IMG/VR virus record: IMGVR_UViG_3300025362_000004
Span: 32,001-96,000 of that record
Source of the DNA: a virus
Direction: 5' to 3' (one strand)
Length of the DNA: 64,000 nt
The stretch's first letter is position 1. Each line of letters begins with the position of its first letter. The notes under the pieces were generated by a model. The model searched no databases. It saw nothing but the letters and a program-made list of their open reading frames with translations, and was not told where the DNA came from. Positions 1,769 through 64,000 of the stretch are shown piece after piece. The position numbers and the translations under genes are program-made.

Positions 1769-1804
1769 AAGCCCTAACACCCTAACGGGGGAAAGCGAGA
1801 TATT

Positions 1805-1975
1805 ATGAAAAAATTATATAGTTTAATAAATAAGATAACAAAAAACGATATATATTATGCAGTTCAAGATTATGACGGTATCATTAGAGTAATGGGGACA
1901 AGCAAGACCATAGTAAAGTATATGAATAAGAATAAGTTATGGAATAAGGTAAGCTATAGTGTAGTGATATTATAA
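1805..1975 (+). CDS. Small hypothetical protein (56 aa)
   Basis: ATG to TAA ORF downstream of the previous gene. Confidence 0.5.
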   Translation: MKKLYSLINKITKNDIYYAVQDYDGIIRVMGTSKTIVKYMNKNKLWNKVSYSVVIL

Positions 1976-2087
1976 TCACACTACATATACAGAAAGGAGT
2001 TGATGCCATTATGGTGTTATGAGTGACAGTCACACGTGAGTAAATACGCCAAGATAATAGGTGGTAGCGTGTGACAGTGTATTATGC

Positions 2088-2180
2088 ACACAGTGCCGTG
2101 TGTGTCGGTATGTGGGGTGTGTGTATCCACAGTACCATGTGTGTCGGTATATACCCACAGTGCCGTGTGTGTCGGTGTCG
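2088..2180. repeat. Three imperfect direct repeats CACAGTRCCRTGTGTGTCGGT
   Basis: Read directly from the sequence. Confidence 0.85.
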
Positions 2181-2211
2181 GTGGTAGACAACCAAATTTT
2201 TTTGTCTGTCT

Positions 2212-2347
2212 ATGTAAGCGCTTACATATAGGGTGATGTAAGCGCTTACATATAGGGTGATGTAAGCGCTTACATATAGGGTGATGTAAGCGCTTACATA
2301 TAGGGTGATGTAAGCGCTTACATATAGGGTGATGTAAGCGCTTACAT
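2212..2347. repeat. Tandem 24-bp repeat x6, each holding the perfect palindrome TGTAAGCGCTTACA (cre/LacI-family operator-like)
   Basis: Palindromes start at 2213, 2237, 2261, 2285, 2309 and 2333; fits the CcpA cre consensus TGWNANCGNTNWCA. Confidence 0.9.
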
Positions 2348-2439
2348 AGGTTGGTTGTCTGAGGCAGACAACCTAAAAAACTTGTAAAGTTTCTCAAAAT
2401 ATGATATAATTGGGTAAAGATAAAAAGGGGGTTCCAAAA

Positions 2440-2775
2440 ATGTGTGTAAAAGATATAGTAAAAAATAAAGGTGCAACTTTAACAAAAACATTAAGAAAGT
2501 CAATATTAAAAACGGGTTATATGGTTAGTATTAAAGGTTATGAAATACAAGTAGACGCAAGTGATTTTACAAAATTGAGTAACGAAATTTTTAAAACACA
2601 ACAACTTTCAAAATTTCATAAAAATTCTTATATTGGAATTTGGATTGAAGATGAAATTGCTTATATTGATTTAAGTGTTAATATTAAAGATTTAAAAGAA
2701 GCAACTAGCTTCGGAACAGAAAATGAGCAACTTGCAATTTATGGAATTAAAAATAGTGAATTACTTTATATTTAA
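2440..2775 (+). CDS. Early phage protein, possible SAM-lyase-like fold
   Basis: First cassette gene; GIW...YIDLS...A..FG...EQLAIY pattern; family call weak. Confidence 0.55.
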   Translation: MCVKDIVKNKGATLTKTLRKSILKTGYMVSIKGYEIQVDASDFTKLSNEIFKTQQLSKFHKNSYIGIWIEDEIAYIDLSVNIKDLKEATSFGTENEQLAIYGIKNSELLYI

Positions 2776-2893
2776 GGGCTGAAAAGTCCTTTTTATTTAA
2801 GGTAAGAGGCTGTCTGAGACAGACAACCTAAAAAACTTGTAAAGTTTCTCAAAATATGATATAATTGGGTAAAGATAAAAAGGGGGTTTCAAA

Positions 2894-3163
2894 ATGTTAG
2901 GACTAAATACGCCATTAACAGAGGAACAAAAAAACGAGGTTGAATATCAAACACACTTAGTATGTTTAAATTTAGTAAACACACAACGCAACTATTTAAT
3001 AATGCAAGCAAATGAGGAGTATTTCAACGTAATAGACGACTACGATTTCAAATTTGTAATACGCAATGATTTCAAATACTATGACGATATCAAATGGAAA
3101 TATGTAAACTTTAACAAAGTTAAAGCCTACATCGTAGAAACATTAACAGAGTTAAGAGCCTGA
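2894..3163 (+). CDS. Hypothetical early protein (ends in TGA inside the terminator hairpin)
   Basis: Cassette promoter, RBS and terminator. Confidence 0.8.
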   Translation: MLGLNTPLTEEQKNEVEYQTHLVCLNLVNTQRNYLIMQANEEYFNVIDDYDFKFVIRNDFKYYDDIKWKYVNFNKVKAYIVETLTELRA

Positions 3164-3259
3164 AAAAGGGCTCTTTTTTTATTAACGCAAGTGGGTTGTC
3201 TACCATAGACAACCTAAAAAACTTGCATTATTTCGGTGTATATGATATAATATAAGTAT

Positions 3260-3390
3260 AGAGATAAGGTAGTCAATACCTCATCTCTCCACCAAAACTT
3301 TATTAGGCAAACCCACACTAACACGTGGAACCGTTGAATAAGTAAACTCTCTCTAAAAAACCCTATTGTGGCGATAGGGTTTAGAGAATA
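3260..3390 (+). ncRNA. Putative small ncRNA cassette
   Basis: Cassette promoter but no RBS or ORF; hairpins at both ends. Confidence 0.5.
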
Positions 3391-3482
3391 TGCGCAAGGG
3401 GTTGTCTGCGGTAGACAACCTTTTTAATTTGACTTATTTCTTTATATATGGTATAATTACTATATAAGAAAGAGGTAATAAA

Positions 3483-3770
3483 ATGAAAAAAATAATAGTA
3501 TTAGTTGACGATAAAGAGAACTGTATTTTAGCGACGTTAGATTTAGAAAAGAGAAAAGTTGATGTAACACCAGTTAAAAGATTTAAAGAATTATCATTTT
3601 TAGGACAAGCAAGATTTCAAAATAAATTAGAAAGAGCACTTTTAGAAACAACCAGACTCAACGACGAAGAAAAAGAAAACGCAATCTCTAATTTAGTTTA
3701 TAAAAGATTTCTTGACGAGTCTCCAGAATTAGAAGAAATAATGGAATTAGTCGAATTAATGAAAGACTAA
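3483..3770 (+). CDS. Hypothetical early protein
   Basis: Cassette promoter, GAGG RBS and terminator. Confidence 0.85.
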   Translation: MKKIIVLVDDKENCILATLDLEKRKVDVTPVKRFKELSFLGQARFQNKLERALLETTRLNDEEKENAISNLVYKRFLDESPELEEIMELVELMKD

Positions 3771-3907
3771 TTAATCGAAAAAAGAAAGTAGTCCTCCTCC
3801 TCTACTTTCTTCTTTATTGTAAGTATTAGGTTGTCTACGGTAGACAACCTAAAAAACTTGCTATTATTGAGTTTATATGTTATAATATATATAAGAGGTG
3901 AGAGATT

Positions 3908-4147
3908 ATGTTAGTATTACAAAGAAAGCATTATATTATGAGTGAGATTTTAAACGGTGGGAATACCTTAAAAGTTATACCAAAAAATGGGCTTGACAAT
4001 TACAGAGTAGGTCAAACAGTTAGAGTTTTTCATGAAATTAACTCGCAGAAATACCGAGAAGGAAAAATCACAAAAGTAAGACAACACGCATTTGAGTTTG
4101 GTTTTAGTGTTGGAACAACTGAATTGCCGAGAGTTATTATTTTATAA
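3908..4147 (+). CDS. Hypothetical early protein
   Basis: Cassette promoter and RBS. Confidence 0.8.
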   Translation: MLVLQRKHYIMSEILNGGNTLKVIPKNGLDNYRVGQTVRVFHEINSQKYREGKITKVRQHAFEFGFSVGTTELPRVIIL

Positions 4148-4320
4148 ATTAAGACTTATAAGAGAAACAAATAGATAGGTCTGTGTTGAAGAAAAGGAAA
4201 CTTTGAAAAATCCTTTTCTTCTTTTATAATTCATGGTAGGTTGTCTGCCGTAGACAACCGAAAAGATTTGACATCATATCTAAATTATGATATAATATAA
4301 GTATAAAAGGGGTGAATTAA

Positions 4321-4575
4321 ATGGAATTTAAAACAGAGTTAAAAGTAAATATTCATTTTGAAAACAGAACAGTTTTTACAGATGAGGTAGTAAGGGATAG
4401 TATCACAGGCGAAGTTATCGCTGAATTAGTAAATGATATTGATATGGGAACTGCTACTACAGTAGAAAATGATATACTAAAAGATGGTTCTTGTATTTTA
4501 TCAGTAACAAAAGAAACAAGTGGCTTCAATGCTGAAACTGGGTTTTACGACTTAGATTTAACAATTGAAATGTAG
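4321..4575 (+). CDS. Acidic hypothetical early protein
   Basis: Cassette promoter and RBS. Confidence 0.85.
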   Translation: MEFKTELKVNIHFENRTVFTDEVVRDSITGEVIAELVNDIDMGTATTVENDILKDGSCILSVTKETSGFNAETGFYDLDLTIEM

Positions 4576-4742
4576 TTAAGGCTTATAGAATCTAAAATAG
4601 ATAGGCTTGTTTGGAAGAAAAGGAAACTTTGAAAACTCCTTTTCTTCCTTTATAAAATGATAGAGGTTGTCTGCAGTAGACAACCTTATTCGTTTGACTT
4701 AAAATAATATATATGGTATAATATATGTAAGAGGTGAGATGT

Positions 4743-5225
4743 ATGAAAAAGAAATTATATTTTGATATGGACGGTATTTTAGCCGATTTTGACAATGAGC
4801 CAAACGCTTTAACACGTTTTAAAAAAGAAAAAGGCTTTTTCGCAACACTACAACCAATAGAAGAAAATATTAAGGCTGTAAAAAAACTTATCGCAGAGGG
4901 TAAAAAAGTTTATATATTAAGTGTAAGTCCTAACAGACAAGCCGACACTGACAAAAAATCTTGGCTTAAGAAATATCTACCAGAAGTAAAAGAAAAGAAT
5001 ATATATATTATAAGGACAGGAACGCCAAAGAATAAAGCCGTAAAAGTAAAGAGAGCAATATTGTTTGACGATTACCGATTAAATGTTAGAAAATGGATTG
5101 ACGCTGGTGGCTACCTTGCTATAAAAATAACACAAAGAACAGATAAAAAACTCAAAGCCGAATATCAAGCAAGAACTTTAGAACAAAGTATTTCAAGATT
5201 AAAAATGTTTGGGGTGATACAATGA
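4743..5225 (+). CDS. HAD-family 5'(3')-deoxyribonucleotidase (NT5C-like)
   Basis: YFDMDGILADF, ILS, K..WL and LFDD motifs. Confidence 0.85.
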   Translation: MKKKLYFDMDGILADFDNEPNALTRFKKEKGFFATLQPIEENIKAVKKLIAEGKKVYILSVSPNRQADTDKKSWLKKYLPEVKEKNIYIIRTGTPKNKAVKVKRAILFDDYRLNVRKWIDAGGYLAIKITQRTDKKLKAEYQARTLEQSISRLKMFGVIQ

Positions 5226-5380
5226 AAACTATTTATATTGTGTCATGGGAAAGAAAACATGATATATTAAATGACGAAGAAATGGAAAAAATATTAAATG
5301 GTGGAGTAATAATAAAAGACGGTATAAGATATGTTTCTTTGTGGGGTTATATTGATATAAATATAGAGATTGAAAAATAA
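5222..5380 (+). CDS. Small hypothetical protein (ATGA overlap with the upstream gene)
   Basis: GGGGTGA RBS, ATG 5222, TAA 5378-5380. Confidence 0.65.
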   Translation: MKTIYIVSWERKHDILNDEEMEKILNGGVIIKDGIRYVSLWGYIDINIEIEK

Positions 5381-5520
5381 TCTCTTTTTCTTTCTTTTGA
5401 GTAGGTTGTCTGCGGTAGACAACCTAATTTATTTGACATTGTTTTCTTTCTATGGTATAATATATACATAAGATAAAGAAAGATATTACTAAACTTTATC
5501 AAAAAAAGGGGTAACATATT

Positions 5521-5781
5521 ATGGCTAAAGTAACAAAAAAAGTAACAGAGTTGAGCGATAAAGCGAAAGAAATTTTAGTGGTTTTGCAAGGTGCTGACAA
5601 GGGTTTGACACTACAAGAAATCACAAGCAAGGGCGTTGTAAAGCCTAATGGCTCACACTTAAAAGCACTTGAAAACAGAAATCTTGTTACAAGCGTTGAT
5701 GTTGAAATTATCGTGCCAACTACAAGAACAGTAAAATCTTATTCTGTTGTTGTGGCTGAAGAAGAAACACCAGCCGAGTAA
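5521..5781 (+). CDS. Winged-helix-like protein (paralog family A)
   Basis: LSDKAKEIL..L....LTLQEI...L.ALENRNLV...SY.V pattern. Confidence 0.7.
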   Translation: MAKVTKKVTELSDKAKEILVVLQGADKGLTLQEITSKGVVKPNGSHLKALENRNLVTSVDVEIIVPTTRTVKSYSVVVAEEETPAE

Positions 5782-5900
5782 AAAACTAAAGCGAGAAATC
5801 GCTTTTTTTTCTATTCGCAAGTGGTTGTCTGCGGTAGACAACCTAAATGACTTGACTTATTTTAGTATCTATGGTATAATATATATAAGAGGTGATAAAT

Positions 5901-6224
5901 ATGTTATTTAATAATGAGTATTATAATATTCTAAAAAGAGAAGAAAGAGAAATGAAACAAGAGGCTTTAATCGAAAGGTCAAAAGAATTTACTAAAATGG
6001 TTTTAAAAACCGAAGAAGCAATATTACATTTTAACTTTAGTAAAAAATTAAAAACTAAAATTAGTATAATAACTTATGTGTGGTTAGGTCTTGCTACTTT
6101 TAGAAAAGAGTTTAAAGAATATTTTTATAGAGAGTACAAAGAAATGGAAATTGATATAGTTAGTATAGAATATGACAAATCTGAATTCTGTCACGATTTC
6201 ATTCTCAAATTGAAAAAGAGATAA
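5901..6224 (+). CDS. Hypothetical early protein
   Basis: Cassette promoter and RBS. Confidence 0.8.
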   Translation: MLFNNEYYNILKREEREMKQEALIERSKEFTKMVLKTEEAILHFNFSKKLKTKISIITYVWLGLATFRKEFKEYFYREYKEMEIDIVSIEYDKSEFCHDFILKLKKR

Positions 6225-6324
6225 TCTCTCTTTTTTTATTGTAGTTAGGTTGTCTGCGGTAGACAACCTAAGTGACTTGACTTATTTTAGTATCTATGGT
6301 ATAATATATATAAGAGGTGAGAAT

Positions 6325-6786
6325 ATGAAAAACTTAATCAAAGTATTAAATGAAATTACAAACGAAAAAATTATTGTTTCGGCTCGTGGTGGTAGCCCCA
6401 TCATAAACACAAATCAGCGTAGCGTTATAAAGCAAAGAATAGAAAAAGCATTTTTAACAGACTTGCAAGAAATTTTTGCTGAAACCGATTTAGTCCATAT
6501 TATTGGTAGGGCTGAAAAAGGTATAATGTTAGCCATAGAGCATAATGATTTAGTAGATAATGCAAAAACTGAAGGCGAAATTGCTTTAGAATTTAATATC
6601 AAAGTAAGCAATTTAGATTTTGACACAGACACAGAAATTAGACTACACACAAAAGAACAAGCTAACAAAGAAATAGAAAAACAAGAAAAAGCACTTGCAA
6701 AGAAAAGAAAAATTGCAAGAGATAAAAAAGATAGAGCAGATAGAAAAAAAATAAAAGAACAAAAATTAGCCAAGTTAAACGGCTAG
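6325..6786 (+). CDS. Hypothetical protein with basic coiled-coil tail (paralog family B)
   Basis: EIALEFNIKVSNLDFD core shared with the ORFs at 13012 and 24521. Confidence 0.85.
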   Translation: MKNLIKVLNEITNEKIIVSARGGSPIINTNQRSVIKQRIEKAFLTDLQEIFAETDLVHIIGRAEKGIMLAIEHNDLVDNAKTEGEIALEFNIKVSNLDFDTDTEIRLHTKEQANKEIEKQEKALAKKRKIARDKKDRADRKKIKEQKLAKLNG

Positions 6787-6884
6787 TTTTTCTTTGACTT
6801 TCTAGAGGTTGTCTGCAGTAGACAACCTTCAATTTTTGACATTCTACTTAGTTTATGGTATAATATATATAAGAGGTGATAGAT

Positions 6885-7379
6885 ATGAAATTTAATGATG
6901 TAGTTGTAAAAATGGGCGAGTTAGTAAGTGGTTTTTTATCTGCTGTAAGTCCTGCGATATCTGTATCATTTGACAATTTTTCAAGTTTTGACCCTGAAGA
7001 AAATGTTATATATATAGGTCTATTGCCTATGACTGAAGAAAATCCCTATGACGATTTTCATAAAGGCTATTACAGAGCAAGTGGCTTTGATTATGAAAGT
7101 TATGGTATATCATTTGAAACTTTTACAATATTGCACGAGTTAGGACATATGGAAAGCAACCCAACAGAAAAAGAATACCAAGAATATTATAGATTAACAA
7201 ATATAATAAATAATTCAAATATGGAATTATCTACAAAAGCAAATAAATACTTTGCATTAGATTTAGAATATAAAGCAAATCAATGGGCTTTCAACTTCTT
7301 AAAAGATAATTTAGATATTGTTAGAGTGTTTGATAAAGCATTCAACCTCCTAAAAAGCGAATTACTCAATTGCGAGTAA
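6885..7379 (+). CDS. HExxH zinc-metallopeptidase-like protein (ImmA/IrrE-like)
   Basis: TILHELGH and E..AN.WA motifs. Confidence 0.7.
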   Translation: MKFNDVVVKMGELVSGFLSAVSPAISVSFDNFSSFDPEENVIYIGLLPMTEENPYDDFHKGYYRASGFDYESYGISFETFTILHELGHMESNPTEKEYQEYYRLTNIINNSNMELSTKANKYFALDLEYKANQWAFNFLKDNLDIVRVFDKAFNLLKSELLNCE

Positions 7380-7478
7380 TTTCTTTTTCTTCTGGGTTGG
7401 TTGTCTACGGCAGACAACCGCATTCGTTTGACTTAAGGCATTATATATGGTATAATATTTATATAAGAGGTGATAAAT

Positions 7479-8180
7479 ATGTTTTGTTCAAATACAACTA
7501 CAAGCGATTATATATTTTTAATAGTAACTCACGAGTGCGATAGGAATTGTGCTTTCTGCGTAGATAAGGACAGAGGAAAACAAGAATATATTACAATGGA
7601 AAATGCGGCGAAAGCAGTCCAATATTGTTTAGATAATGATATTAAAACGATTACTATATTAGGTGGCGAACCCACACTACACCCATTTATTGCATCAATA
7701 TGTTCTATGATAAGATATTATGGTATAAATATTGTAATGACTACAAATTACAGTAAACCTTCAGTTGTTGCTTACCTAGATAAATTTGTAAGTAGTTTTA
7801 ATATATCTTATTATGACCAAAAACACTTACCAAAGCAAAAAGATTTTAATGCCGACCTTACATTATCAAAGTTATTGTTTAAAGGTGGTATCGACACAAG
7901 AGAAAAACTAGACAACTTTATTGATAAACATCAAAATGATTTCAATGACTTAAAGTTCTCTACACTAACAGATATAAATAAGTTTACCCACGACCACAAA
8001 GACTTACTATTCTTAGACCAACTACCAATAGATAAAAAGGTAACTATTATGGGCGAAATTCAAGGTCATTATTATAGAGGTTATTTAATTAAGAGATTTG
8101 ATTTGAAAGCGACTGAAAATTATTATTGTCAAAGGTCAATGAAAATGCATACCAACGGGGAATTAAAAAGAGAGTGGTAA
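7479..8180 (+). CDS. Radical SAM protein
   Basis: CDRNCAFC (CX3CX2C), GGEPTL and TTN motifs. Confidence 0.92.
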   Translation: MFCSNTTTSDYIFLIVTHECDRNCAFCVDKDRGKQEYITMENAAKAVQYCLDNDIKTITILGGEPTLHPFIASICSMIRYYGINIVMTTNYSKPSVVAYLDKFVSSFNISYYDQKHLPKQKDFNADLTLSKLLFKGGIDTREKLDNFIDKHQNDFNDLKFSTLTDINKFTHDHKDLLFLDQLPIDKKVTIMGEIQGHYYRGYLIKRFDLKATENYYCQRSMKMHTNGELKREW

Positions 8181-8289
8181 CACTCTTTTATTTTAAATTG
8201 AGAAGGTTGTCTACGGCAGACAACCGCATTTGTTTGACTTAATAATAAATATATGGTATAATTAAGTAAAGAAAAAGGGGTATTAAGAA

Positions 8290-8853
8290 ATGGAATATTA
8301 CGGTAGAAATGATTTAAAGAGGGCTATCAAGAGATTTGAGAATGTCAAAAAGATAGCATTAAAATTAAAAGAGTTAGACATTCGTATAGGTCAACCGTTT
8401 AGGGTTAAACAGTTAGGCAATACGATTACTCATTCTGGGACTTTGTTTATGCAACTTGTAAACTCTGGAGTTCTAAAGGTTGTTGAAGTAAGGAAAGAGG
8501 TTTGCCCTTATATCAATAGAGGCGTTGAAACTGTTACAAGTTATAAGCGCATAACAGATGGCTGTATCATTAGCGCTGAAATGTATCACGATATGAATTG
8601 GCGCGGTAGAGATAAATATATTGGATGCCAAAAATCTTTTAAACCTGCTATGAGTAAATACAATGTATATGCAATTCAAGAGAATTGGCGTGGCATTCTT
8701 GTTAAAGAAATCAAAGAATTACAAGGTGCAGTTACGAACATTATTGCAAGAGAAACCAAATGGTTCGTAAACTCAGTTCAAGAATTAACTACTTTCTTTA
8801 AAAACGACGAATGGTCATTAAGAAGAGAAATAAGAAGAATTGAAAACTGCTAA
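8290..8853 (+). CDS. Hypothetical protein, possible winged helix with long wing
   Basis: QLVNSGVLKVVE...YNVY pattern. Confidence 0.75.
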   Translation: MEYYGRNDLKRAIKRFENVKKIALKLKELDIRIGQPFRVKQLGNTITHSGTLFMQLVNSGVLKVVEVRKEVCPYINRGVETVTSYKRITDGCIISAEMYHDMNWRGRDKYIGCQKSFKPAMSKYNVYAIQENWRGILVKEIKELQGAVTNIIARETKWFVNSVQELTTFFKNDEWSLRREIRRIENC

Positions 8854-8954
8854 AAGACCGCAAGGTCTTTTTTCCCGTGTAAGGTAGGTTGTCTGCCGTA
8901 GACAACCTAAAATATTTGACAAACTTAACTCTATATGGTATAATATATGTATAA

Positions 8955-9272
8955 GGTTGAGATAGAAACTCGTAAAAACGAAACATTGTTTAAACTCAAT
9001 TTGTAGTAGGAACCTTATAAAATGTGCTTATGTTAGCGAACCAGCGACTAACTAAAATTGCAAGTGTGAATGTGGAACTTGCAGGTATCCATTGCCTACA
9101 GCTATGGCGTAATTAGAAATTTTAACGACAAAAAAACCGTATACCTTGTTTGTGGTGCTTGTAACGATAACGAAAGTAACCGCCAAAGTCCTGTGGTAAA
9201 GGCAAAATAGGTTGAGAAATGTGGACTTTCTCATTAAATAAAGACTAATGCATAACTATTAGCCTATTTTTT
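8955..9272 (+). ncRNA. Putative ~310-nt structured ncRNA cassette
   Basis: Cassette promoter and terminator, no RBS-led ORF, several hairpins. Confidence 0.55.
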
Positions 9273-9371
9273 TTACGCAAGGAGTGGTTGTCTGCCACAG
9301 ACAACCGAATAATTTGACAATGTAAGCGTTTTATGATATAATATAGGTAGTTAAGAAAGGACTTGACAAAA

Positions 9372-10130
9372 ATGAGCGAAAAAGAAAAAATCTTAATTTT
9401 AGATACAGAGGTCAACGGGAAATTTGTTTATGATATTGGTTTTATTATCGCTGAGGAAAGCGAAAAGGGTTTTTATCACGCCGTAGAAAAGCATCAATTT
9501 TTAGTAGAACAGATATATTATAATCATAGATTATTTACTACTGATTATTACGCAAAGAAACGGAAAACTTATACAAAACTAATGAAAGGTAGAAATGCAA
9601 TATCTAAAAAGTTTGGTTATATAACACAAATAATCGCACACACCATCAAAAAACATGATATTAAAAAAGTTTATGCTTATAATAGTAATTATGATAAAAC
9701 AAGGTTTGCATTTACAAGTAATGATTTCAAAGTTATAAATCCGTTTGATAAAATAGAATGGCACGATATAATGGCTATCTCTAATCACTTTATACATTTA
9801 AGTGAAAAATATATCAATTTCGCTATTGAGAATGAGTATATCAATTCAAGTGGTTTTATTGAAACAACAGCCGAAACAACTTATCAATTTGTAGATAGCA
9901 ATATTGATTTTAAAGAGGAACACACCTCACTTGCTGACTGTGAAATAGAAATGGAAATATTAAACTATTGCATAGCAAAGGGATACAATAAAGAACAAGT
10001 TTACAAAACAAAAAATATCCCAAGTGATAAATTGCAAGTATTAACAGTAATTCACGAAAGCACCGAACATAAATTTGGTTATGTAAAAAGAAAAAATAGT
10101 TATTTAAAAAATCAAATTACTCTCACATAG
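9372..10130 (+). CDS. DEDDh 3'-5' exonuclease
   Basis: ILDTE, AYNSNYD and HTSLADC motifs. Confidence 0.88.
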   Translation: MSEKEKILILDTEVNGKFVYDIGFIIAEESEKGFYHAVEKHQFLVEQIYYNHRLFTTDYYAKKRKTYTKLMKGRNAISKKFGYITQIIAHTIKKHDIKKVYAYNSNYDKTRFAFTSNDFKVINPFDKIEWHDIMAISNHFIHLSEKYINFAIENEYINSSGFIETTAETTYQFVDSNIDFKEEHTSLADCEIEMEILNYCIAKGYNKEQVYKTKNIPSDKLQVLTVIHESTEHKFGYVKRKNSYLKNQITLT

Positions 10131-10240
10131 AGAGTTTTTTGCTTTTAATTTAATTAGGTTGTCTGCGGTAGACAACCGCATAAGTTTGACAAGTTTCTTT
10201 GTATATGGTATAATATAAGTATAGAAAAGGGGTAATAAAT

Positions 10241-10669
10241 ATGTTAAATGTAAATGTAGTAGACACTTACAGCGCGAGGGCGCTTGTCCGTGATTTTAGA
10301 ACTATCTATAGCAAGGTAGGGACATCAATTTTTAGGTCTAAAGAGGTTGGCGAACATTATCGCGCTGAATTAGAAAAGTTAAAAAGATACGGTCTTTGTA
10401 GAGTTGTAGAAACAAGACATCAACAAGTAGTAGATACAAGCCGTTGTTACAGAAACGATATGACTTTGGTAAATACAAGAAACCAAGATACAGTCGATGA
10501 AATTGAAAACGCCGTAGAGGGCGAAACTTACAAAGCCGTAAAAGGTAGAGTAATTAAAGGCGAGTTTTATACATACCAATTAACTTGTAATAGTATTAGT
10601 GACTTAATTGATGAAATCGAAAACCAATTATTCAAAGCCGGAAAAGATTTAAGAATGCATTTTTGTTAA
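10241..10669 (+). CDS. Hypothetical protein, related to the 8290 ORF
   Basis: LEKLKRYGLCRVVE...YTYQL pattern. Confidence 0.8.
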   Translation: MLNVNVVDTYSARALVRDFRTIYSKVGTSIFRSKEVGEHYRAELEKLKRYGLCRVVETRHQQVVDTSRCYRNDMTLVNTRNQDTVDEIENAVEGETYKAVKGRVIKGEFYTYQLTCNSISDLIDEIENQLFKAGKDLRMHFC

Positions 10670-10794
10670 AAGACCGAAAGGTCTTTTTTTGTTTTTGAGG
10701 TGGTTGTCTGCCGTAGACAACCTATTCAGAAGAAAATAAATTGACAAATGTTCGGCGATATGGTATAATCAGTATATAGAAAAGGGGTATTATT

Positions 10795-11085
10795 ATGAAA
10801 AAAATAAAAAAAGCATTAGACTTAATAGAAAATGAATTCTCAAAAATAATTGCAAAAATTACGGAAGATCTTGGGGTTGTAGTTTACTATTATGGCAAAT
10901 TAGAATTTCATCATGGGGTAGAATTTATCCAAAAAATTGAGTTTACAAGAAGTGACGAAGAATTCCTTTTTTACTTGACAGCAAATATAAAAGATATGAA
11001 ATTTAAAGCCGATATAAATAATATATTTCATCATAATTCATTTGAATTTGAAACTGTAAAGAGAATTGTAAAAGACTTTAACTAG
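10795..11085 (+). CDS. Hypothetical early protein
   Basis: Cassette promoter and RBS. Confidence 0.8.
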   Translation: MKKIKKALDLIENEFSKIIAKITEDLGVVVYYYGKLEFHHGVEFIQKIEFTRSDEEFLFYLTANIKDMKFKADINNIFHHNSFEFETVKRIVKDFN

Positions 11086-11188
11086 TCTTTTTTAAAAATT
11101 AAAGTGGTTGTCTGCCGTAGACAACCGCATTTGTTTGACTTAAAACGTTATGTATGATATAATATAAGTATAGAAAAGGGGTATCAAA

Positions 11189-11578
11189 ATGAAAAAAATG
11201 TTATTATTATTAGTAGTATTAGTTATTGGGTTCGGTTTTGTAGGTTGCGACCAAGCGAGTGTGGCCGCCGATAATATCAGCACAGGTGCAGACAATTTTG
11301 AAGTTCTTAGAAAAGTAGTTTTCTATAATGGGATTACAGACGAGTATATGTATGCAATTGAAGGCTATTGTTCTATCAAGCAAGACAACATTGATAATCA
11401 ATTAGAAGTAACTTGTAAAACGGGCGAAGACGCCTATGTAAAACACTATTTATATTTGAGTGATAATATCACATACATGGTTATTCAGTTAGAGACTGTC
11501 AATGTAGACACCTATCATTATAGGTTTATTTTAAGACCGAATGTTTTAATTCCTGATATTGAAGTCGATTTACCGTAG
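11189..11578 (+). CDS. Conserved phage lipoprotein
   Basis: Lipobox FVGC; ADNFEV.R.VVFYNGITD.Y..IEGYCSI motif. Confidence 0.85.
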   Translation: MKKMLLLLVVLVIGFGFVGCDQASVAADNISTGADNFEVLRKVVFYNGITDEYMYAIEGYCSIKQDNIDNQLEVTCKTGEDAYVKHYLYLSDNITYMVIQLETVNVDTYHYRFILRPNVLIPDIEVDLP

Positions 11579-11696
11579 TTAAATTAAGACCTTCGGGTCT
11601 TTTTTTTGTGAGTTGAATGGTTGTCTGCCGTAGACAACCGCATTTATTTGACTTAAAGCGTTGTGTATGGTATAATATATGTATGAGGTGATAGGT

Positions 11697-12110
11697 GTGG
11701 AAAAGTTAATATTTGAAGATAAAATGAGTGGTATTAGAGTTAATTTAAGTAAAGAATTAAGAGAAGAAATGAACGAGATAACAATGGGCTTAGATTATAT
11801 GACACCGAAAGACGTCCCTGATTTTGTTTTGTACGGTATTTGGTGGAGTTTTAAAGGTATGTTTTTAGAGATACTTTTTGAGAAAGACAGTACTAACGTA
11901 AAACTTAGAAAATCTGGTAAAACTGAAGAAATTTTAGTTAGTGAGTATTATTCTAAAAGTCTCTTTGACAGTTTAGTTGGTATGCTAGATAACGACGACC
12001 AAATAAAAGTTTGGCTATATACAAATCGCAAAGACATTTGGGAACAATTAGTTGATAAATTCGGTAGCGAAAAAAATGTGTTTGACGAATATATTAGATT
12101 TAACCATTAG
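11697..12110 (+). CDS. Hypothetical early protein
   Basis: Cassette promoter, GAGGTG RBS, GTG start. Confidence 0.75.
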   Translation: MEKLIFEDKMSGIRVNLSKELREEMNEITMGLDYMTPKDVPDFVLYGIWWSFKGMFLEILFEKDSTNVKLRKSGKTEEILVSEYYSKSLFDSLVGMLDNDDQIKVWLYTNRKDIWEQLVDKFGSEKNVFDEYIRFNH

Positions 12111-12222
12111 GTTAAATCTTTTTTATTTTAAGGTGGTTGTCTGCCGTAGACAACCTAAAATAATTGACAATTTAAAATATATATGATATAATATGTATAT
12201 AGAATTAAAAAGGAGAAATAAT

Positions 12223-12615
12223 ATGAAAAAGATTTATGCGTTCGGTTTCACCTACGATGATTTTGCGGACGGTGGTTTTAGTCCTAATTTTATTAGTTTT
12301 AGTAAAGAAGAATGTTTTAATAAATTAAAAAAAGAAAATAATGACTATGCAGTTGTGTCCTATGATTTTGAAAAAGATTTTGATTATGACGAAATTGAAA
12401 TAATTGCTATTGTTAGAGATGGCCAATTTACTATTTTAACAGATTTAGAAGAATTAAAAGAAAAAGCATTTCAGTTGGGTAAAAATTTAATATCAACTAT
12501 GAACATTATTAACGAACCAAATGAAGAACAATATACTTTCATAGATAATGAGTTTAAAAAAATGGGTTTACCAAATTTTGCTTCATTCCAAGTTTTTGAA
12601 AGGCTTTTTACATAA
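12223..12615 (+). CDS. Hypothetical early protein
   Basis: Cassette promoter and AGGAG RBS. Confidence 0.85.
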   Translation: MKKIYAFGFTYDDFADGGFSPNFISFSKEECFNKLKKENNDYAVVSYDFEKDFDYDEIEIIAIVRDGQFTILTDLEELKEKAFQLGKNLISTMNIINEPNEEQYTFIDNEFKKMGLPNFASFQVFERLFT

Positions 12616-12785
12616 GCCTTTTTTTTATAAATTGTATGGTTGTCTGCCGTAGACAACCAATTAGTTGAATGTTTAGGTTGTCTGCCAAAAATGAACGAAT
12701 AAAGGAATGAGTTTACTTTTCGTTCACTGTTCAGGAGAAAAATAAATATACGCCGACCGTTATTTACCATACCAAGAAAACCCCA

Positions 12786-12897
12786 TTCATTATTCACTAT
12801 TCATTATACGCAAGAACACCGTGCCGTTCATTATTCATTATTAACACGCAAGAAGCAGCAGGCCTATGTTCATTATTCATTATTAAACACGCAAGAG
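12786..12897. repeat. Three TTCATTATTCA...ACGCAAGA direct repeats (iteron-like)
   Basis: Read directly; AT-rich flanks. Confidence 0.75.
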
Positions 12898-13011
12898 TGA
12901 ACTAAAAATTATTTTATTTTTTATTTCTAAATACACTTGACAAAGTTGCCGAAATATGGTATAATATATATAAGAGATAAGGAAAATATTTTATCTCAAA
13001 AAGGGGTAATA

Positions 13012-14485: not shown

Positions 14486-14567
14486 GGGGTTGTAAGGGTT
14501 CGACAGTATTGTAAACCAACAAACGGAGCAATGCTGGACAGGGGTTCAACTCCCCTCAATTCCACCA
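14486..14567 (+). ncRNA. Mini-tmRNA: tRNA-like domain only, no tag reading frame
   Basis: GGGG..TTCGAC 5' end, 9-bp P2 hairpin, GAC.GGGGTTCAACTCCCC T arm, G3-U70, TCCACCA end. Confidence 0.8.
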
Positions 14568-36737: not shown

Positions 36738-36812
36738 GCGAGTATGGTATAATGGTATTACGACAGTCTCCAAAACTGCAAAATGTGGGTTCAAATCCTA
36801 CTACTCGTGCCA
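36738..36812 (+). tRNA. tRNA-Trp(CCA)
   Basis: Loop CTCCAAA, G73. Confidence 0.9.
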
Positions 36813-45587: not shown

Positions 45588-45979
45588 GGGGCTGTTTATG
45601 GATTCGACAGGGTAAAAACGGATACGATTAGCATAGGTTCGATGGAACTAAAACACACGATAAAACAATCGGAAACTTATTTAACACAGTTATTTCTTGG
45701 GTAAAGGGTTTATTCTCTCCAAGAGTAGCACTTTCAGTCTAAGAAGAGACAGAACGAATTTATAACTATTACCTATAAGTTATAATTTCGCCAGAATATA
45801 GGATACGACTACTGACTAATACAAAGTGGTAAGAGATAAATTGTATTGAACGATTCGTAATAAAGTTTGTATGTAGTAAAAAGCGAAAAGTTCTAAAACC
45901 CTCTAAAAACATACTAACTATGTAGAATATGGTATCACGAATATCGTGGACAGGGGTTCAAATCCCCTCAGCTCCACCA
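45588..45979 (+). ncRNA. ssrA: tmRNA; predicted tag (A)GNLFNTVISWVKGLFSPRVALSV (45671-45742)
   Basis: GGGGCTG..GGATTCGAC 5' end; GAC.GGGGTTCAAATCCCCTCAGCTCCACCA 3' end. Confidence 0.95.
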
Positions 45980-50278: not shown

Positions 50279-51170
50279 AGTTTAGTGTCTCTAAAGGGAA
50301 AAGGTGGGTAACCATCTGGAAGGTATTTGACAAATATCGCTATGTAATATAGCCCGTCTAAACAAAAGTAGTCAAGTGAGAGTATTAAAAATGTAGCTCA
50401 CTCTTCAAGATAGTAACGAATTGTTGGAGAATAGATACTGTTATTATGTTAAAAGGAGTCAACGGCAAGTGCTTAGATTCTGTGGTTATCTCGTGGTGGG
50501 ATAATCGGCATATCCAAAAATAATAGAATTGAAAGAAAACTACAAGGGTAATAAGTATGAGGTTAGCAACTAAATGCAGTTACCCATTAAGTAAAGTAAA
50601 AATGGAGCTTTATTTAAAGTGAAAGTACCGCGAGGAAATCACAACGGAGATATTGAATATTTTGTGTCCCAAAAGGAAACGAAGTTCAGGTTGAAGTATA
50701 TCTTCTGTCAAAACAAACAATACATATGGGGGTTCGAGTCCCTCCCTAGCCTCCAATAAAAATTATATGGCTGGGTAGCTTAATGGGTAAAGCAGTTGTC
50801 TAAGAAACAATACATTTGTATAAGCGAAATCTTCAAAGATTTAAGATGAAAATGCCTTAATTCCACAGAGTAATACTTAATGTGGAGCAGTAAAACTCGC
50901 AAGGTAATACTGTTTGATAAGGAAATGCACGGCGTCTCTAGCGAGACTTAGTGAGTCGCAAGCTCACACGGTAATGGAATTGTCGATTAATCTTAAATGA
51001 CAGGGTGCTAAGCATCATCCTTCCAGAGATGGTAAAACAAAGCAGGCATGCTTCTAAACAGACCCGAGTCTGTGGATAAGTTAATTAACACGTGCAGATA
51101 AGCATCGCGTGGTACGATTAACTAAAGTAGGAGTATTAAAGATATAATCTCAGTCTTTAAAAACTAAACT
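50279..51170 (+). ncRNA. Large structured ncRNA, domain 2 (~890 nt, GOLLD-like candidate) with embedded permuted tRNA
   Basis: AGTTTAGT/ACTAAACT closing helix; terminator 51171-51195; no ORF. Confidence 0.7.
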
Positions 51171-54927: not shown

Positions 54928-55113
54928 TATAGATTGTGCGACTTTTGAATAAAAAGTCGCATTTTTTATTATTGACTTTTTTCCAATTTTGTGATATAAT
55001 AAATTATAAAGATGTAAAGGTAAAGTTATTGGGAAATAACTACACAAAATTAAGAGCCTAGAACAGGTAGTCTGATTGCCACTTTAAATCAAAAAACTTA
55101 AAGGTGGTTTAAA

Positions 55114-55587
55114 ATGAAAAATTTAAAAAGAAAACTTATTGCGACATTCACAGTAATGATGTTTGCCTTACTGGCAACAATTGGAACAACTTATGCTTAC
55201 TGGAATTACTTTGTACATACAGAGTCTAGTATTACAGTAGAAGTTGGAGTAGCCGACAGAATAGTCGTAGCAATTAACACAACAGGTGCAGGTGCTTTAG
55301 TCCCAGCAGGACAATCTACAGGTGCTGAAGTTGAATCTATTGTATTGACTTATGATGTTTCAGTTACACAAGGTGCAGTTGACAGTGGTATTACAACATT
55401 ATCTGTAACAACAGCAAATGAATCAACAGCATTAGTTAACATCTCTGTTAGCGCGCCAACAACTTTAACAGTGGCTAATCAAACAGTTACGGTTACAGTT
55501 ACATTAGATTCCCCAGCAGACCAAGCGGCTTATGATGCTTTAATTGCAGCTGGGATTACATTCGACTTAGTTTTTACTATAGCGTAA
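55114..55587 (+). CDS. Secreted protein with SipW-type (TasA-like) signal peptide
   Basis: Basic N-terminus, hydrophobic helix, GTTYAYW. Confidence 0.75.
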   Translation: MKNLKRKLIATFTVMMFALLATIGTTYAYWNYFVHTESSITVEVGVADRIVVAINTTGAGALVPAGQSTGAEVESIVLTYDVSVTQGAVDSGITTLSVTTANESTALVNISVSAPTTLTVANQTVTVTVTLDSPADQAAYDALIAAGITFDLVFTIA

Positions 55588-56643: not shown

Positions 56644-56867
56644 AATATCACATAAATATTCTTTTTTTATTCCAAAGTTGACAATTTTTTAAAATCGTAG
56701 TATAATATTAATGTAAAGATAAGAAATGCGGCGAAATTTAAACAAAAGAGCGAATATTTTATATTTCGGCAAAACACGTAAATTTCCGTCGTACCCCCGA
56801 ACTGGCAGTACCAGTTTTGGTATGGGTCAAATAGGGCGGCGCCGCAGATTTAGTCTTTATTTTTATT

Positions 56868-56945
56868 GGGAGTATAGTGTCAACTGGACAGCACGTCGGC
56901 CTTCAAACCCGTACAGCCCCAGTTCAATTCTGGGTACTCCTGCCA
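56868..56945 (+). tRNA. tRNA-Trp(TCA), UGA-decoding
   Basis: Acceptor GGGAGTA/TACTCCT, G73, loop CTTCAAA (anticodon 56903-56905), short variable loop. Confidence 0.85.
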
Positions 56946-56978
56946 ATATTACTGTCAAAGCGACGAGGGCGATACAAC

Positions 56979-57488
56979 ATGGATATTTGATTAATAATAG
57001 GAACAATAACTGGGCTTTTAGTAGGTATTACAGGGCTTTTAACATACTTTGAACATAGACGAGATGCAAAAGAGAATAAAAGAAAAAAAGCTACAATTGA
57101 AAAACAAGAGGAATTTAAAAAAGAAATAATAAATGAAGTAACTCATAGAACTGCTGAAGAAAGAGAAAGTTGTTTAGAAGAGAAATTGATCGATTATCTT
57201 GATAAAAAAACATACACTGAAAGACATGAAGAAGTTATTAAAGAAATACATAAATTATCAGGACAATTAACCAAACACTACTCAGAATCAATAGAAACAG
57301 AAAGACAAAGATTGGCTTCTGAAATAATTAATTTTGCAGAAGATATAAAAAATAAATTGCCAAAATCTTCAGTCGCATATGAACATATACATATATGTTA
57401 TAAACGATATAAAGATATTGGTGGAAATCATTATATAGATAAAGTGTTTGAATATATACAAAATAGCATGGGTGAAGATGATGTTTAA
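56979..57488 (+). CDS. Holin-like membrane protein (TGA=Trp at codon 4)
   Basis: MDI(W)LIIGTITGLLVGITGLLTYF TM helix in frame with the tracked 57186 ORF; Y..Y...GGN motif typical of lysis-cassette proteins. Confidence 0.7.
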
Positions 57489-57882
57489 AATTATTAGTTT
57501 TATCTGACAATTACCACAGAACTTAATAGGATTATTTTTATACTTGGTATTTGGAACTGCGAAACGCTATAAATATAAAGGAAAATATGTAGCTCATGCT
57601 AAAACAAACAAATGAGGTGCAATAAGTTTAGGAATGTTTATTATTTTCTTTGCTGATTACGGCGATGGAGAATATTATACAAATACAATAAATCATGAAT
57701 ATGGACATACAAAGCAATCAAAAATGTTAGGTCCATTTTATTTGTTAATAGTTGGATTACCTTCAATAATTTGAGCTAGTTGTTTTAAAGGGTATAGGGT
57801 GTCTACGGGCGCAAGCTACTACTGATTTTATACAGAGCATTGAGCTGATAAATTAGGTGGAGTTTCCCGCTGTAAAAAATAA
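57481..57882 (+). CDS. Membrane-associated HExxH protein (five TGA=Trp codons)
   Basis: (W)QLPQNLIG, (W)GAISLG, HEYGHTKQS, GLPS and YY(W)FYTEH(W)ADKLGG; TGA at 57505, 57613, 57772, 57823, 57841. Confidence 0.88.
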
Positions 57883-57968
57883 CAATACGAAAAGCAAGTT
57901 TATGAAATTTGCTTTTTTTTATAATTTATGGTATAATATATATATAAGATATGGAAATGGAGGTATTT

Positions 57969-61815: not shown

Positions 61816-62856
61816 ATGCAAGTTAAAAAAAGAAATGGAGAACTTGAAGATTTTAATTTAATGAAAATCGCCAAGGCAGTATATAGAGCAAGGCTTGATG
61901 CGGGTTATGAAAAAGACTTAGAGCGTTGCGTTGATGAAGCAAAAATAATCATGAAAGATATTGTTAATGGTAAAACTTTAGATATTGAAACAATTCAAGA
62001 TGAGATAGAAAAGTATTTTATTAAAAATGATGATATAGAAGTATTTAAACTTTTCACTTTCTATCGTGAAAAAAGACGACAAGACAGAGCTAATCCATGA
62101 GCCAATAATGACGAGCGTCAAGATTTAATACTTCAAAAATATTTACTTCCAACAGAAACTAAAAAGGAATTTTTAGATAGAATATCACTTGGGAGAACAG
62201 ACCTTCTTAAGATTTTTAGAAATCGAGAGGGTATTTGAGGTGGAAGAAACCTTTTTGCGATAGGTAGAGACGGTAATATTACTGGTTCTAATTGTTATGT
62301 TGCTGAAAATCCAACAGATAGTTTAGAGGATATTTATAGAGTAGCTTTTGATATTGCTAAAACTTATAGTTATGGTGGTGGACAAGGTATGAACTTATCT
62401 AATCTTAGACCTAAGGGCGCTAAAGTAAATAATAGTAGTAATACGACACCTGGTGTCATGACTTTTGCAGAGTTATATTCATTTATTACTTTACACACAC
62501 AACAAGAAAGTAGACGTGGAGCACTAATGCTTATGTTAAATATTGACCACCCAGATATAATTGATTTTATTACTTCTAAGCTAGACTTATCTAAAATTAC
62601 AGGTGCTAATATTAGCCTTGCGATTACGGATGATTTTATGGAAGCATATAATAATAATAAAGATTGAAATTTAACTTTTGAAACGCCTTATGAGATGATA
62701 GTAAAAACTGTAAATGCAAGAGATTTAATGCATTTAATTAGTTACTCAGCTCATACAATGGGAGACCCAGGATTCATTTACATTGATAATGTTAATAATT
62801 ATCATTTATTAAGTGAATATGATGAAGTAGAATTTACAGCTACAAACCCGTGTGGT
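61816..62856 (+). CDS. nrdJ: Class II (B12-dependent) ribonucleotide reductase, exon 1, with ATP cone (TGA=Trp at 62098, 62236, 62665)
   Basis: VKKRNG ATP cone, SNCYV, GGGQG, RRGALM, HPDI, ANIS, DPG and ATNPCG motifs. Confidence 0.88.
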
Positions 62857-63183
62857 GAACTGCTTGCCTCACATTAAACATCGAGCAATATCGGTGAAGG
62901 CTTAACTGCTAATACCGAGATAAGTTACACTTTAATAGGTGTAACCATCGTAACGCATAGATAATGAAACTTTTGATACACCGCGTGCGGCGATCCGGAC
63001 TGGTTCAAAAGAATATAATTTATCCACGAGTGCTCGATATATAATCCCCTACGGATTATATAAAAATATATGCTGACCTACCAGATGAATAAATCTGGAA
63101 AGCCGCGTCTAATTGTCATACGACAGTGGTTGAACGAAAGTTCTAGAAGTAGAGAATAAAAAGTCTTTACGATAACAATAAAG
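62857..63183 (+). mobile_element. Group I intron (327 nt, no endonuclease ORF) in the RNR active-site codons
   Basis: Splicing restores NPCG|EQPL; exon ends in U, intron ends in G; P1 GCCTCAC, P10 TGCTT/GAGCA, P7 GCATA/TATGC. Confidence 0.9.
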
Positions 63184-64000
63184 GAGCAACCTTTAATGGC
63201 AAATGGTTCATGCAACCTCGGAAGTATTAACTTAAATGCTTTTGTAAGAAAAAATTTTACTGAAGAGGCGTATTTTGATTCTGGAAGATTTATTGAAGTA
63301 GTTAAATCTATGATTAGTGGATTAGATGAATTATTAGATATAATGGGTGAAAGACATGCATTGGCATCTCAAAGAGAACATGTTATAGAATGGCGTGAAG
63401 TTGGATTAGGAGTTATGGGACTTGCTGATTTAGCTTTAAGTATGGGATTAGGATATGGAACATCTGAATTTATTAAAGTTCTTGATGTGATTATGTCTAC
63501 AATGGCTAATGCGGCGGCGCAAGCGTCGGTTGAATTAGCGGTAGAAAAAGGAACATTCCCGAAATATGATTATGAAAAGATTTCTAGTTCAAGGTTCTTT
63601 AATGAAGTCTATTCAGAAGAAACAAAAAATATGATACAAGAGTATGGTTTAAGAAATAGTAGATTACTAAGTATTGCACCAACTGGTAGTATATCAAATA
63701 TTATTGGAGTTAGTGGCGGCGTTGAGCCTTATTTTATGCTTGGCTATCAAAGAACTATTAAGTCTATGTTCGAGGATGAAAAGACAATTTGAATTTACGA
63801 AAAAACTCCGTTAAAAATGATGAAGTATTTCAAACTTGAAAATCATTATGATTTACCTGATTGGGCTAAAATAACTTCACAGAATATTAATGTTAATTCA
63901 AGATTAAAAGTTCAAGAGACTATTCAAAAATATGTTGATACAGCAATTTCTTCAACATTTAATTTACCTAATGATGCTACAACTGGAGATGTCGAAGGTA
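63184..64000 (+). CDS. nrdJ: Class II ribonucleotide reductase, exon 2 (runs off the window; TGA=Trp at 63790)
   Basis: EQPL...SCNLGSINL, GLGVMGLAD, GLRNS..LSIAPTGSIS and QKYVDTAISSTFNLP motifs. Confidence 0.9.

Follow-up and report, generated by a model that had tools for sequence, protein, structure and literature searches.

The question raised by the locus described here is whether a phage that reads the opal codon TGA as tryptophan has placed the transfer RNA (tRNA) for this reading in front of two TGA-bearing genes as a gate on their expression. The locus lies in a 64,000-nucleotide stretch of viral DNA (the window), which comprises bases 32001-96000 of the IMG/VR virus record IMGVR_UViG_3300025362_000004; coordinates refer to the window unless they are marked as genome positions. 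It consists of a tRNA with the anticodon UCA, in the following tRNA(UCA), and two genes for membrane proteins, here called gene A and gene B. An initial annotation of this DNA had described it as an operon with a holin-like gene that forms a self-contained translational gate. The underlying observation was confirmed and the interpretation was partly supported. We consider it fairly probable that tRNA(UCA) is the UGA decoder of the phage, that it is co-expressed with genes A and B, and that the linkage arose by drift and not as a lysis gate. The unit is composed of the following features:

56678..56706, + strand: sigma-70-type promoter TTGACA-17-TATAAT, in agreement with the consensus at 12 of 12 positions
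56712..56867, + strand: 5' leader of about 155 nucleotides (nt) before the tRNA, with a predicted Y-shaped fold closed by GCGGCG/CGCCGC
56868..56945, + strand: opal-reading tRNA(UCA) with a Trp-type acceptor (G1.U72, G73), encoded CCA and an anticodon stem of three standard pairs
56946..56978, + strand: spacer of 33 nt between the tRNA and gene A, with the ribosome-binding site GAGGG at 56965-56969, 9 nt before the ATG
56979..57488, + strand: gene A, 169 amino acids (aa; MDIW...), with TGA (56988-56990) as codon 4
57478..57882, + strand: gene B, 134 aa (133 aa from the second ATG at 57481), overlapping the end of gene A and encoding an N-terminal membrane helix
57889..57925, + strand: terminator, a 13-bp hairpin (57889-57917) followed by a U run (−10.5 kcal/mol, z −3.9; 0 of 200 shuffles as good)

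The whole virus record has a length of 123,582 bp and a guanine plus cytosine (G+C) content of 32%, and it is rated complete by CheckV. The window is part of a complete 123.6-kb tailed phage, probably with a standard-code Bacillota host; relatives of its terminase in a collection of cultured phages infect Bacillus, Geobacillus, Brevibacillus, Enterococcus, Lactococcus and Clostridia. The DNA of the unit gave no match to cultured phages. All 12 sequencing runs listed as containing this DNA are labelled as salt lake metagenome, and five of them hold at least half of the sampled words. No RNA run was found among these listed holders. Contigs from four other runs showed 0 differences over parts of the unit, including the tRNA and codon 4 of gene A, and cover the unit in pieces of which no single one spans the whole. 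Since these contigs match without a difference, an assembly error behind the odd tRNA and the TGA codons is unlikely. The identical pieces from the four runs offer no variants for the analysis of covariation or of switching between TGA and TGG.

TGA is read as tryptophan in a subset of the genes of this phage. The same genome uses TGA as a stop in early genes and as a tryptophan codon in late genes. A greedy call of open reading frames (ORFs) over the whole genome resulted in a coding density of 0.766 with genetic code 11 vs. 0.852 with code 4, and an ORF of 1802 aa, which contains 8 TGA codons, is unbroken under code 4. Along the genome, the share of TGA among the tryptophan codons was 0.58 at 1-33.2 kb (packaging, head and tail genes, thyX), 0.53 in the ribonucleotide reductase region and 0.54 at 119.6-123.6 kb (tail fibres, resolvase). 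For the 18 ORFs at 96.7-119.5 kb (replication genes) it was 0.05, i.e., 3 TGA vs. 62 TGG, and all three TGA are confined to one ORF. ORFs of less than 100 aa and ORFs on RNA genes were excluded from these regional counts, which still include some spurious ORFs at genome 33-88 kb (e.g., one of repeats with 9 TGA). Large TGA-free genes contain 15, 14 and 11 TGG codons.

For a set of 23 recoded genes, 80 in-frame TGA and 40 TGG were counted (TGA share 0.67). The base following the in-frame TGA was G in 40, A in 28, T in 11 and C in 1 case, and the base following TGG was A in 15, G in 13, T in 9 and C in 3 cases; no conclusion was drawn from this distribution. The initial annotation had extended the recoding to nucleotide synthesis, and this was borne out by three in-frame TGA codons in thyX and by in-frame TGA in the ribonucleotide reductase gene (nrdJ). 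Across the early cassettes, the replication genes and the RNA region, TGA is avoided or serves as a stop, and approximately 55-67% of the tryptophan codons are TGA in the structural, tail-fibre, thyX, nrdJ and homing-endonuclease genes and a few others.

In-frame TGA does not occur in the early genes, three of which have TGA as their stop as judged by context. One of these stops (3161-3163) is located at the stem-loop junction of a terminator hairpin:

3154..3175, + strand: early-gene terminator hairpin, −11.8 kcal/mol, z −2.84, followed by seven U

In the other two cases, stop and start overlap as ATGA, and the ORFs that begin there have 52 and 77 aa. Because of the early genes without in-frame TGA and the three TGA stops found there, the host very probably uses the standard code, and a host that natively reads UGA as tryptophan, the circumstance under which the initial annotation would have been abandoned, is very probably not present.

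The tRNA itself was identified with cmscan as a match to RF00005 at 56868-56942 (43.5 bits, gathering score 29), with E values of 2.4e-07 in a 2.5-kb search and 1.3e-05 in a 132-kb search. It comprises 75 nt plus the CCA, which is encoded up to position 56945, and has a variable loop of 5 nt. The anticodon loop CUUCAAA gives the anticodon UCA, which makes it the only UCA tRNA among 42 RF00005 matches (44 Rfam matches in all) in the genome. ARAGORN missed it in the window as well as in the genome and found 40 other tRNAs and one transfer-messenger RNA (tmRNA), all of them within the window and none elsewhere in the genome. The weak anticodon stem with a C-C mismatch, which had been noticed in the initial annotation, was confirmed by cmscan: the first and the last pair of the stem are non-standard (U27.U43 and C31.C39). 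In a comparison of 41 phage tRNAs, 35 showed no mismatch in the anticodon stem, five showed one and tRNA(UCA) alone showed two, and a mismatch of the loop-closing pair 31-39 was found in tRNA(UCA) only. The 27-43 pair was reportedly the subject of work by Schultz and Yarus in 1994. In addition, the phage carries an ordinary tRNA for tryptophan:

36738..36812, + strand: tRNA-Trp(CCA) with an A27.C43 mismatch in the anticodon stem, leaving four pairs

The top pair of the anticodon stem is therefore broken in both Trp-type tRNAs of the phage (A27.C43 and U27.U43). According to our own reading, the tRNA-Trp(CCA) of two relatives (G002 and G003) have five-pair anticodon stems.

The identity elements of tRNA-Trp are G73 and a tRNA-Trp-like acceptor stem. 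Between tRNA(UCA) and the tRNA-Trp(CCA) of the phage, six of the seven acceptor pairs are the same (G1.U72 and pairs 3-7), G73 is shared, and pair 2-71 is changed by a swap of G-C for C-G. The same acceptor likeness between tRNA(UCA) and tRNA-Trp was found in the relative G003. Since acceptor stem and G73 copy the phage tRNA-Trp, tRNA(UCA) probably accepts tryptophan. The search for a release factor proposed with the initial annotation revealed no RF-1 domain (PF00472) in the whole genome, and no match to tryptophanyl-tRNA synthetase (TrpRS; PF00579) was found there either; as controls, the two families were matched in 14/14 and 10/14 genomes, respectively. With no TrpRS match in the phage, charging must therefore rely on the host enzyme. 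By its sequence features tRNA(UCA) would be the UGA decoder of the phage. The presence of the tRNA and the reading of TGA as tryptophan are far beyond chance.

The transcriptional context of the tRNA was analyzed for promoters, RNA folds and terminators. Outside the early cassette array (genome 33.1-45 kb), the + strand has no other perfect match than the promoter at 56678, the total number of perfect + strand matches being 11. This array (window 1127-12937) contains ten perfect and many near-perfect sigma-70-type promoters before small TGA-free genes. For the structural block on the opposite strand, no promoter match of at least 11/12 was detected. The minimum free energy of the leader was calculated as −45.4 kcal/mol (z −3.47), and a fold as good was reached by 1 of 200 shuffles. 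The leader has no match in Rfam at E≤1, and nothing similar to it was found in the genome or in the compared loci; no CCA-looped hairpin was seen in it by eye. In the relative G003, the homologous tRNA is present without such a leader. The spacer between the tRNA and gene A contains no hairpin, and the fold of 56943-56985 reached −4.4 kcal/mol (z −0.05). The terminator at 57889 was missed by a consensus terminator scan, as it has too few G-C pairs for the rule applied there.

Because of the promoter, the unstructured spacer, the terminator and the overlap of genes A and B, the tRNA and both genes very probably form one transcript, as the term operon in the initial annotation had implied. The distance of 33 nt between the tRNA and a membrane-protein gene with TGA as fourth codon was likewise confirmed by the coordinates. 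Since the promoter is of the early, host type, the tRNA is probably made by the host polymerase from early on.

The product of gene A starts with a hydrophobic helix and basic residues and continues with long helices up to a conserved C-terminal domain (RYKxLGGNSYID). The AlphaFold 2 (AF2) model is all-helical with a predicted local distance difference test (pLDDT) value of 95, and no Foldseek match at E≤0.001 was obtained for this fold. The family comprises 62 representatives at E≤1e-3. A tryptophan at or beside the position of codon 4 was found in about 11 of 28 aligned members in our own reading of the alignment. The designation holin-like did not hold for gene A itself, for which neither a Pfam family above cut-off nor a holin PHROG was identified. 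The relatives mostly match PHROG families without an assigned function, phrog_4257 (15/28) and phrog_13632 (12/28). A short form of gene A with the membrane helix and the same C-terminal domain occurs in 18 genome bins of low-G+C Bacilli, and the Pfam families listed for the 89 pooled neighbours of these 18 loci are mostly housekeeping. At 16 of the 18 loci no tail protein is adjacent. Next to gene A, the phage has the tRNA, gene B and a gene for an exonuclease, and no lysin is adjacent. Gene A is a member of a family of single-pass membrane proteins to which no function was assigned.

In gene B, TGA is found at W10, W46, W99, W116 and W122, which are all five tryptophan codons of the gene, as reported in the initial annotation. 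The single TGG of the open frame is located in an upstream TTG extension inside gene A. The gene B family has more than 170 full-length relatives. When the TGA positions were compared with the tryptophan columns of 29 aligned sequences, W10 and W122 were found to be nearly invariant, W99 invariant and W116 the majority residue.

The use of TGA in the two genes was compared with the other recoded genes. With a TGA share of 0.58-0.67, the probability of five out of five tryptophan codons being TGA is about 0.07-0.13 for gene B, so that this observation is not beyond chance, and for six out of six in genes A and B together it is about 0.04-0.09. Relative to the other recoded genes, genes A and B do not clearly stand out by a higher use of TGA.

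H73-E74-x-x-H77 and E120 are invariant in the 29 gene B sequences, in which E120 may act as a metal ligand. An HExxH motif with a further Glu downstream is the ligand pattern of zincin/gluzincin metallopeptidases. The AF2 model of gene B has a pLDDT of 90. Its best structural matches are almost all zinc metallopeptidases with weak scores (Foldseek E≥0.24, Z≤4.4). The top Foldseek matches were BlaR1, BepA and ZMPSTE24 (E≥0.24), and VIA-align yielded the metallopeptidase domain of the effector VgrG2b, BepA, abylysin and HtpX with Z values of 4.4-3.5, which are below the reliable level of this tool. No Pfam or PHROG family matched any of the 29 members, and a search of the gene B profile against the PDB sequences resulted in 0 matches at E≤1. 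Gene B is more likely than not a small membrane-anchored zincin-like peptidase. In 9 of 80 viral loci with gene B, no further protein gene separates the homologue from a long array of tRNAs that begins, on the same strand, 150-400 nt downstream of it. These nine loci (L016, L043-L045, L048, L049, L066, L071 and L078) are probably interrelated and not independent. The gene B family may be linked to tRNA regions.

For the analysis of conservation, homologous tRNA(UCA) genes were searched with a pattern derived from the D arm and the anticodon arm, which resulted in 15 viral contigs (L125-L139), ten of them with a size of 104-146 kb. The window tRNA and these homologues have in common the D arm TAGTGT...GCAC, the stem core CGG/CCG, the loop CUUCAAA, G73, the encoded CCA and an isolated location apart from the main tRNA array. 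In all 15 homologues the variable region forms a second hairpin, whose 7-nt loop (mostly CUCCAAA) carries CCA at the anticodon positions. Unlike in these two-armed homologues, the second hairpin is missing in the window tRNA. In addition, pair 31-39 is C.C in the window tRNA vs. U31-A39 in the homologues, and pair 27-43 is U.U vs. G.U.

The arrangement of tRNA, gene A and gene B is not a conserved design. Neither gene A nor gene B was found beside the homologous tRNA(UCA) in any of the 15 loci. In the relative G003, the tRNA(UCA) (G003:C1:60247-60343) has its own promoter, and a different ORF of 87 aa is located between the tRNA and the exonuclease gene. The near-identical L137 shows the same layout, and its exonuclease matches that of the window at E 1e-37. 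The neighbourhood upstream of the DEDDh exonuclease gene is much alike in the window, in L137 (by blast) and in G003 (by eye). Five contigs of the 14 terminase relatives were searched as well: gene A was present in none of them, and gene B was found in two, at other places of the genome. The idea that genes A and B form an obligate pair was dropped, because none of the 80 viral loci with gene B contains gene A. Three tRNAs of the relative G002 that had been missed by ARAGORN were considered as further UCA tRNAs and rejected, as their anticodons were read by us as TAC, GTC and CAT.

Taken together, these data are best explained by the following sequence of events. The host RNA polymerase would transcribe tRNA(UCA) from the perfect sigma-70-type promoter, and the tRNA would be cut out of a transcript that runs on into the overlapping genes A and B. 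Both genes would be translatable only once tRNA(UCA) works. The linkage would then be a local consequence of co-expression, as the TGG codons of genes linked to the suppressor could change freely to TGA by drift in a genome of 32% G+C, and a purpose-built lysis gate would not be needed as an explanation. The self-contained gate of the initial annotation was not supported: the perfect promoter is of the host type like those of the early cassettes, so that the unit is not obviously late, the TGA use is ordinary, and none of the 15 homologous loci has the arrangement.

A number of points weigh against linkage by drift. The genes were called with a greedy ORF script of our own and not with a gene finder. 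Besides an unusual stem, tRNA(UCA) has the second lowest Rfam score among the tRNAs of the phage. As a recoded islet, genes A and B lie amid TGA-free neighbours (27 TGG and 0 TGA in the five upstream ORFs), which argues that their coupling to the tRNA is not random. With TGA at codon 4 of gene A and codon 10 of gene B, and with gene B translationally coupled to gene A, the unit has the look of a deliberate gate. In such a gate, gene A would be a holin or lysis-timing protein, the TGA at codon 4 would silence gene A and the coupled gene B until the co-transcribed suppressor has matured, and lysis functions would appear only after the code switch. The outline of gene A, an N-terminal membrane helix with a charged helical tail, is holin-like, and among the 28 relatives three touch the holin family phrog_1350 and one phrog_20. 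Two of the 18 short-form loci adjoin a gp58-like tail protein (the Pfam match was seen for L140 only), and CHAP was found in 2 of the 89 pooled neighbours, the loci not being named. A six-frame search of the genome for Amidase_3, Amidase_2, GH25, CHAP, M23 and NlpC/P60 (PF01520, PF01510, PF01183, PF05257, PF01551 and PF00877) was empty for all families, so that no other lysin was found in the genome by this search. No lysin was found among 25 of the 26 Pfam families listed for 91 ORFs, with the 1802-aa and 1280-aa ORFs outside the scan, and the PHROG tally of 132 ORFs lists 25 of 79 families, among the rest of which a lysin could be hidden; both tallies excluded ORFs scanned earlier and ORFs overlapping RNA genes. 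A lysis role for genes A and B is therefore possible. Precedents are a transmembrane protein of the Agate lysis cassette, which is strongly recoded, and the Jade code-change module upstream of lysis genes, both as described by Borges et al. (10.1101/2021.08.26.457843). Against these points stand the missing holin family match of gene A itself, the missing adjacent lysin, the 16 of 18 genomic relatives that have no adjacent tail protein and whose listed neighbours are mostly housekeeping, and the early, host-type promoter. Charged stretches after both membrane helices suggest, in our own reading, that cytoplasmic domains follow. Since, in addition, the two genes use TGA no more than other recoded genes do and none of the 15 homologous tRNA loci shares the arrangement, a purpose-built gate is considered unlikely.

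Linkage by drift also has to be compared with two explanations that concern the decoder. tRNA(UCA) could be weak or decaying, with UGA being read mainly by the phage tRNA-Trp(CCA) and its four-pair anticodon stem. The low Rfam score, the rejection by ARAGORN, the two stem mismatches including the loop-closing pair and the A27.C43 of tRNA-Trp(CCA) are in agreement with this, and UGA is read in E. coli by a tRNA-Trp(CCA) whose stem has four pairs (Fakih et al., PMC13092985). For 80 in-frame TGA codons in 23 recoded genes, however, a dedicated cognate decoder is the simpler assumption. The perfect promoter and the encoded CCA have been kept, acceptor stem, D arm and T arm are intact, the sequence is identical in four other runs, and a homologous tRNA(UCA) is retained in 15 other large phage contigs, which makes a decaying tRNA quite improbable. 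Still less probable, to a degree that it hardly needs to be considered, is a host that itself reads UGA as tryptophan (Mycoplasma-like, code 4), so that nothing would be gated. Such a host would fit with the genome of 32% G+C and with the result that no cell-wall lysin was detected. It is contradicted by the 62 TGG vs. 3 TGA, confined to one ORF, in the 18 ORFs at 96.7-119.5 kb, by the TGA stops in the terminator hairpin and the two ATGA overlaps, and by a UCA tRNA carried by the phage itself. A tail protein with a Prophage_tail domain, proteins with Listeria-Bacteroides repeats and terminase relatives that infect walled Bacillota also argue against it.

More speculatively, the code switch could be driven by a stripped-down decoder unlike every homologue found, with the loosened stems of the UCA and CCA tRNAs outcompeting release factor 2 of the host. 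The leader and the two TGA-led membrane-protein genes would then be a built-in check, their proteins being made only where the switch works. This proposal is rather doubtful, if slightly less so than the lysis gate.

The general idea of a phage code switch near lysis genes is already in print, and the unit described here is a local version and not a new kind of system. In their account, Borges et al. (10.1101/2021.08.26.457843) describe TGA-to-Trp phages on standard-code hosts, including an 'Agate' lineage of about 127 kb; intron endonucleases are recoded as well, and recoding is strong in a transmembrane protein from the lysis cassette of Agate. Suppressor tRNAs were detected in 35% of such genomes, perhaps owing to non-canonical structures, and TGA was found as a stop in 4 of 146 genes of a standard-code relative. 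By the traits described there, and not by a comparison of sequences, our phage resembles the Agate phages in genome size, in structural genes with TGA as tryptophan next to standard-code replication genes, in scattered alternatively coded modules, in recoded homing-endonuclease genes, in its suppressor tRNA and in relatives that infect Bacillota. As in Agate, TGA is nearly unused as a stop, with three clear cases in this phage. It differs from the Agate phages as described in that it was found in salt lake metagenome runs and not in the gut, in that thyX and nrdJ are recoded, and in that no lysis cassette was recognised.

A close published arrangement is the Jade 'code change module' (suppressor tRNA, TrpRS and RF1), which in the same account is located directly upstream of TGA-bearing lysis genes (Borges et al., 10.1101/2021.08.26.457843). 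tRNA(UCA) of our phage is likewise found directly upstream of transmembrane-protein genes with in-frame TGA. Unlike the Jade module as described, this genome has no match to TrpRS or a release factor, the tRNA would share its transcript with the TGA genes, and the downstream genes were not recognised as lysis genes. A division of the genome into standard-code blocks and opal-reassigned blocks resembles the crAss-like phages with blocks of different genetic codes that are described in the Mgcod preprint (10.1101/2022.06.29.495998).

For the loosened stem, a comparison is offered by Fakih et al. (Nucleic Acids Res 2026, PMC13092985), in whose article a tRNA-Trp with a 4-bp 'unpinned' anticodon stem is described to read UGA both in E. 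coli and in protists. A tRNA-Trp(UCA) is also present in 65 of the 70 code-4 bacterial genomes whose tRNA-Trp(CCA) has a stem of 4 bp, and older work cited in the article found stop-codon readthrough to be raised by an unpaired 27-43. Both Trp-type tRNAs of our phage have a broken top pair of the anticodon stem like the tRNAs of that study. The study differs in that it deals with cellular genomes, the word 'phage' being absent from its main text, and in that the loss of the loop-closing pair 31-39 is not treated in that text. A plain suppressor tRNA with a three-pair stem was not found in the literature searched, a search that did not extend to the supplementary tables of Borges et al.

Beside the unit, several other features of the genome were characterized. 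The ribonucleotide reductase gene is interrupted in its frame:

61816..62877, + strand: initial part of a class II (B12-type) ribonucleotide reductase; it contains in-frame TGA, stops behind NPCGE and continues at 63196

Among solved structures, the B12-dependent class II enzyme 1xje is the best relative of this reductase (E 2.4e-25). The gap of about 320 nt (62877-63196) may be an intron or the result of a split gene, and no Rfam intron family was reported for it. At genome 30097-31068, a protein of 323 aa is encoded in which an N-terminal membrane helix is followed by a long coiled coil and, at the C terminus, by a GIY-YIG nuclease domain. It carries TGA at codons 3 and 6 and is thus a second membrane-anchored protein with a very early TGA.

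Among the other RNA elements, a cyclic di-GMP (c-di-GMP-I) riboswitch was identified at 55009-55083 (49.1 bits, gathering score 35) with a near-consensus promoter at 54972. Just downstream of it follows a gene (55114-55587) whose small protein product has a signal-peptide-like start. A match to GOLLD RNA at 50645-51156 is barely at the gathering score (150.4 vs. 150). In addition to the full tmRNA at 45588-45979, a short second match to the tmRNA family was found at 14486-14567 (65.1 bits). In the relative G002, a ROOL RNA and a tmRNA are located beside the tRNA array.

With respect to the biology of these phages, a holin gate, if true, would matter for the timing of lysis; the evidence does not raise it above a local accident of gene order. 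In code-switching phages, late proteins are held back by a codon that the host cannot read, and the phage described here is an example from salt lake metagenome runs, outside the animal guts surveyed in print. One genome shows TGA both as a stop in its early genes and as tryptophan in its late genes. Its suppressor tRNA, which lacks the extra CCA hairpin, provides a natural comparison for the role of that hairpin and for that of a loosened stem in the competition with the release factor.

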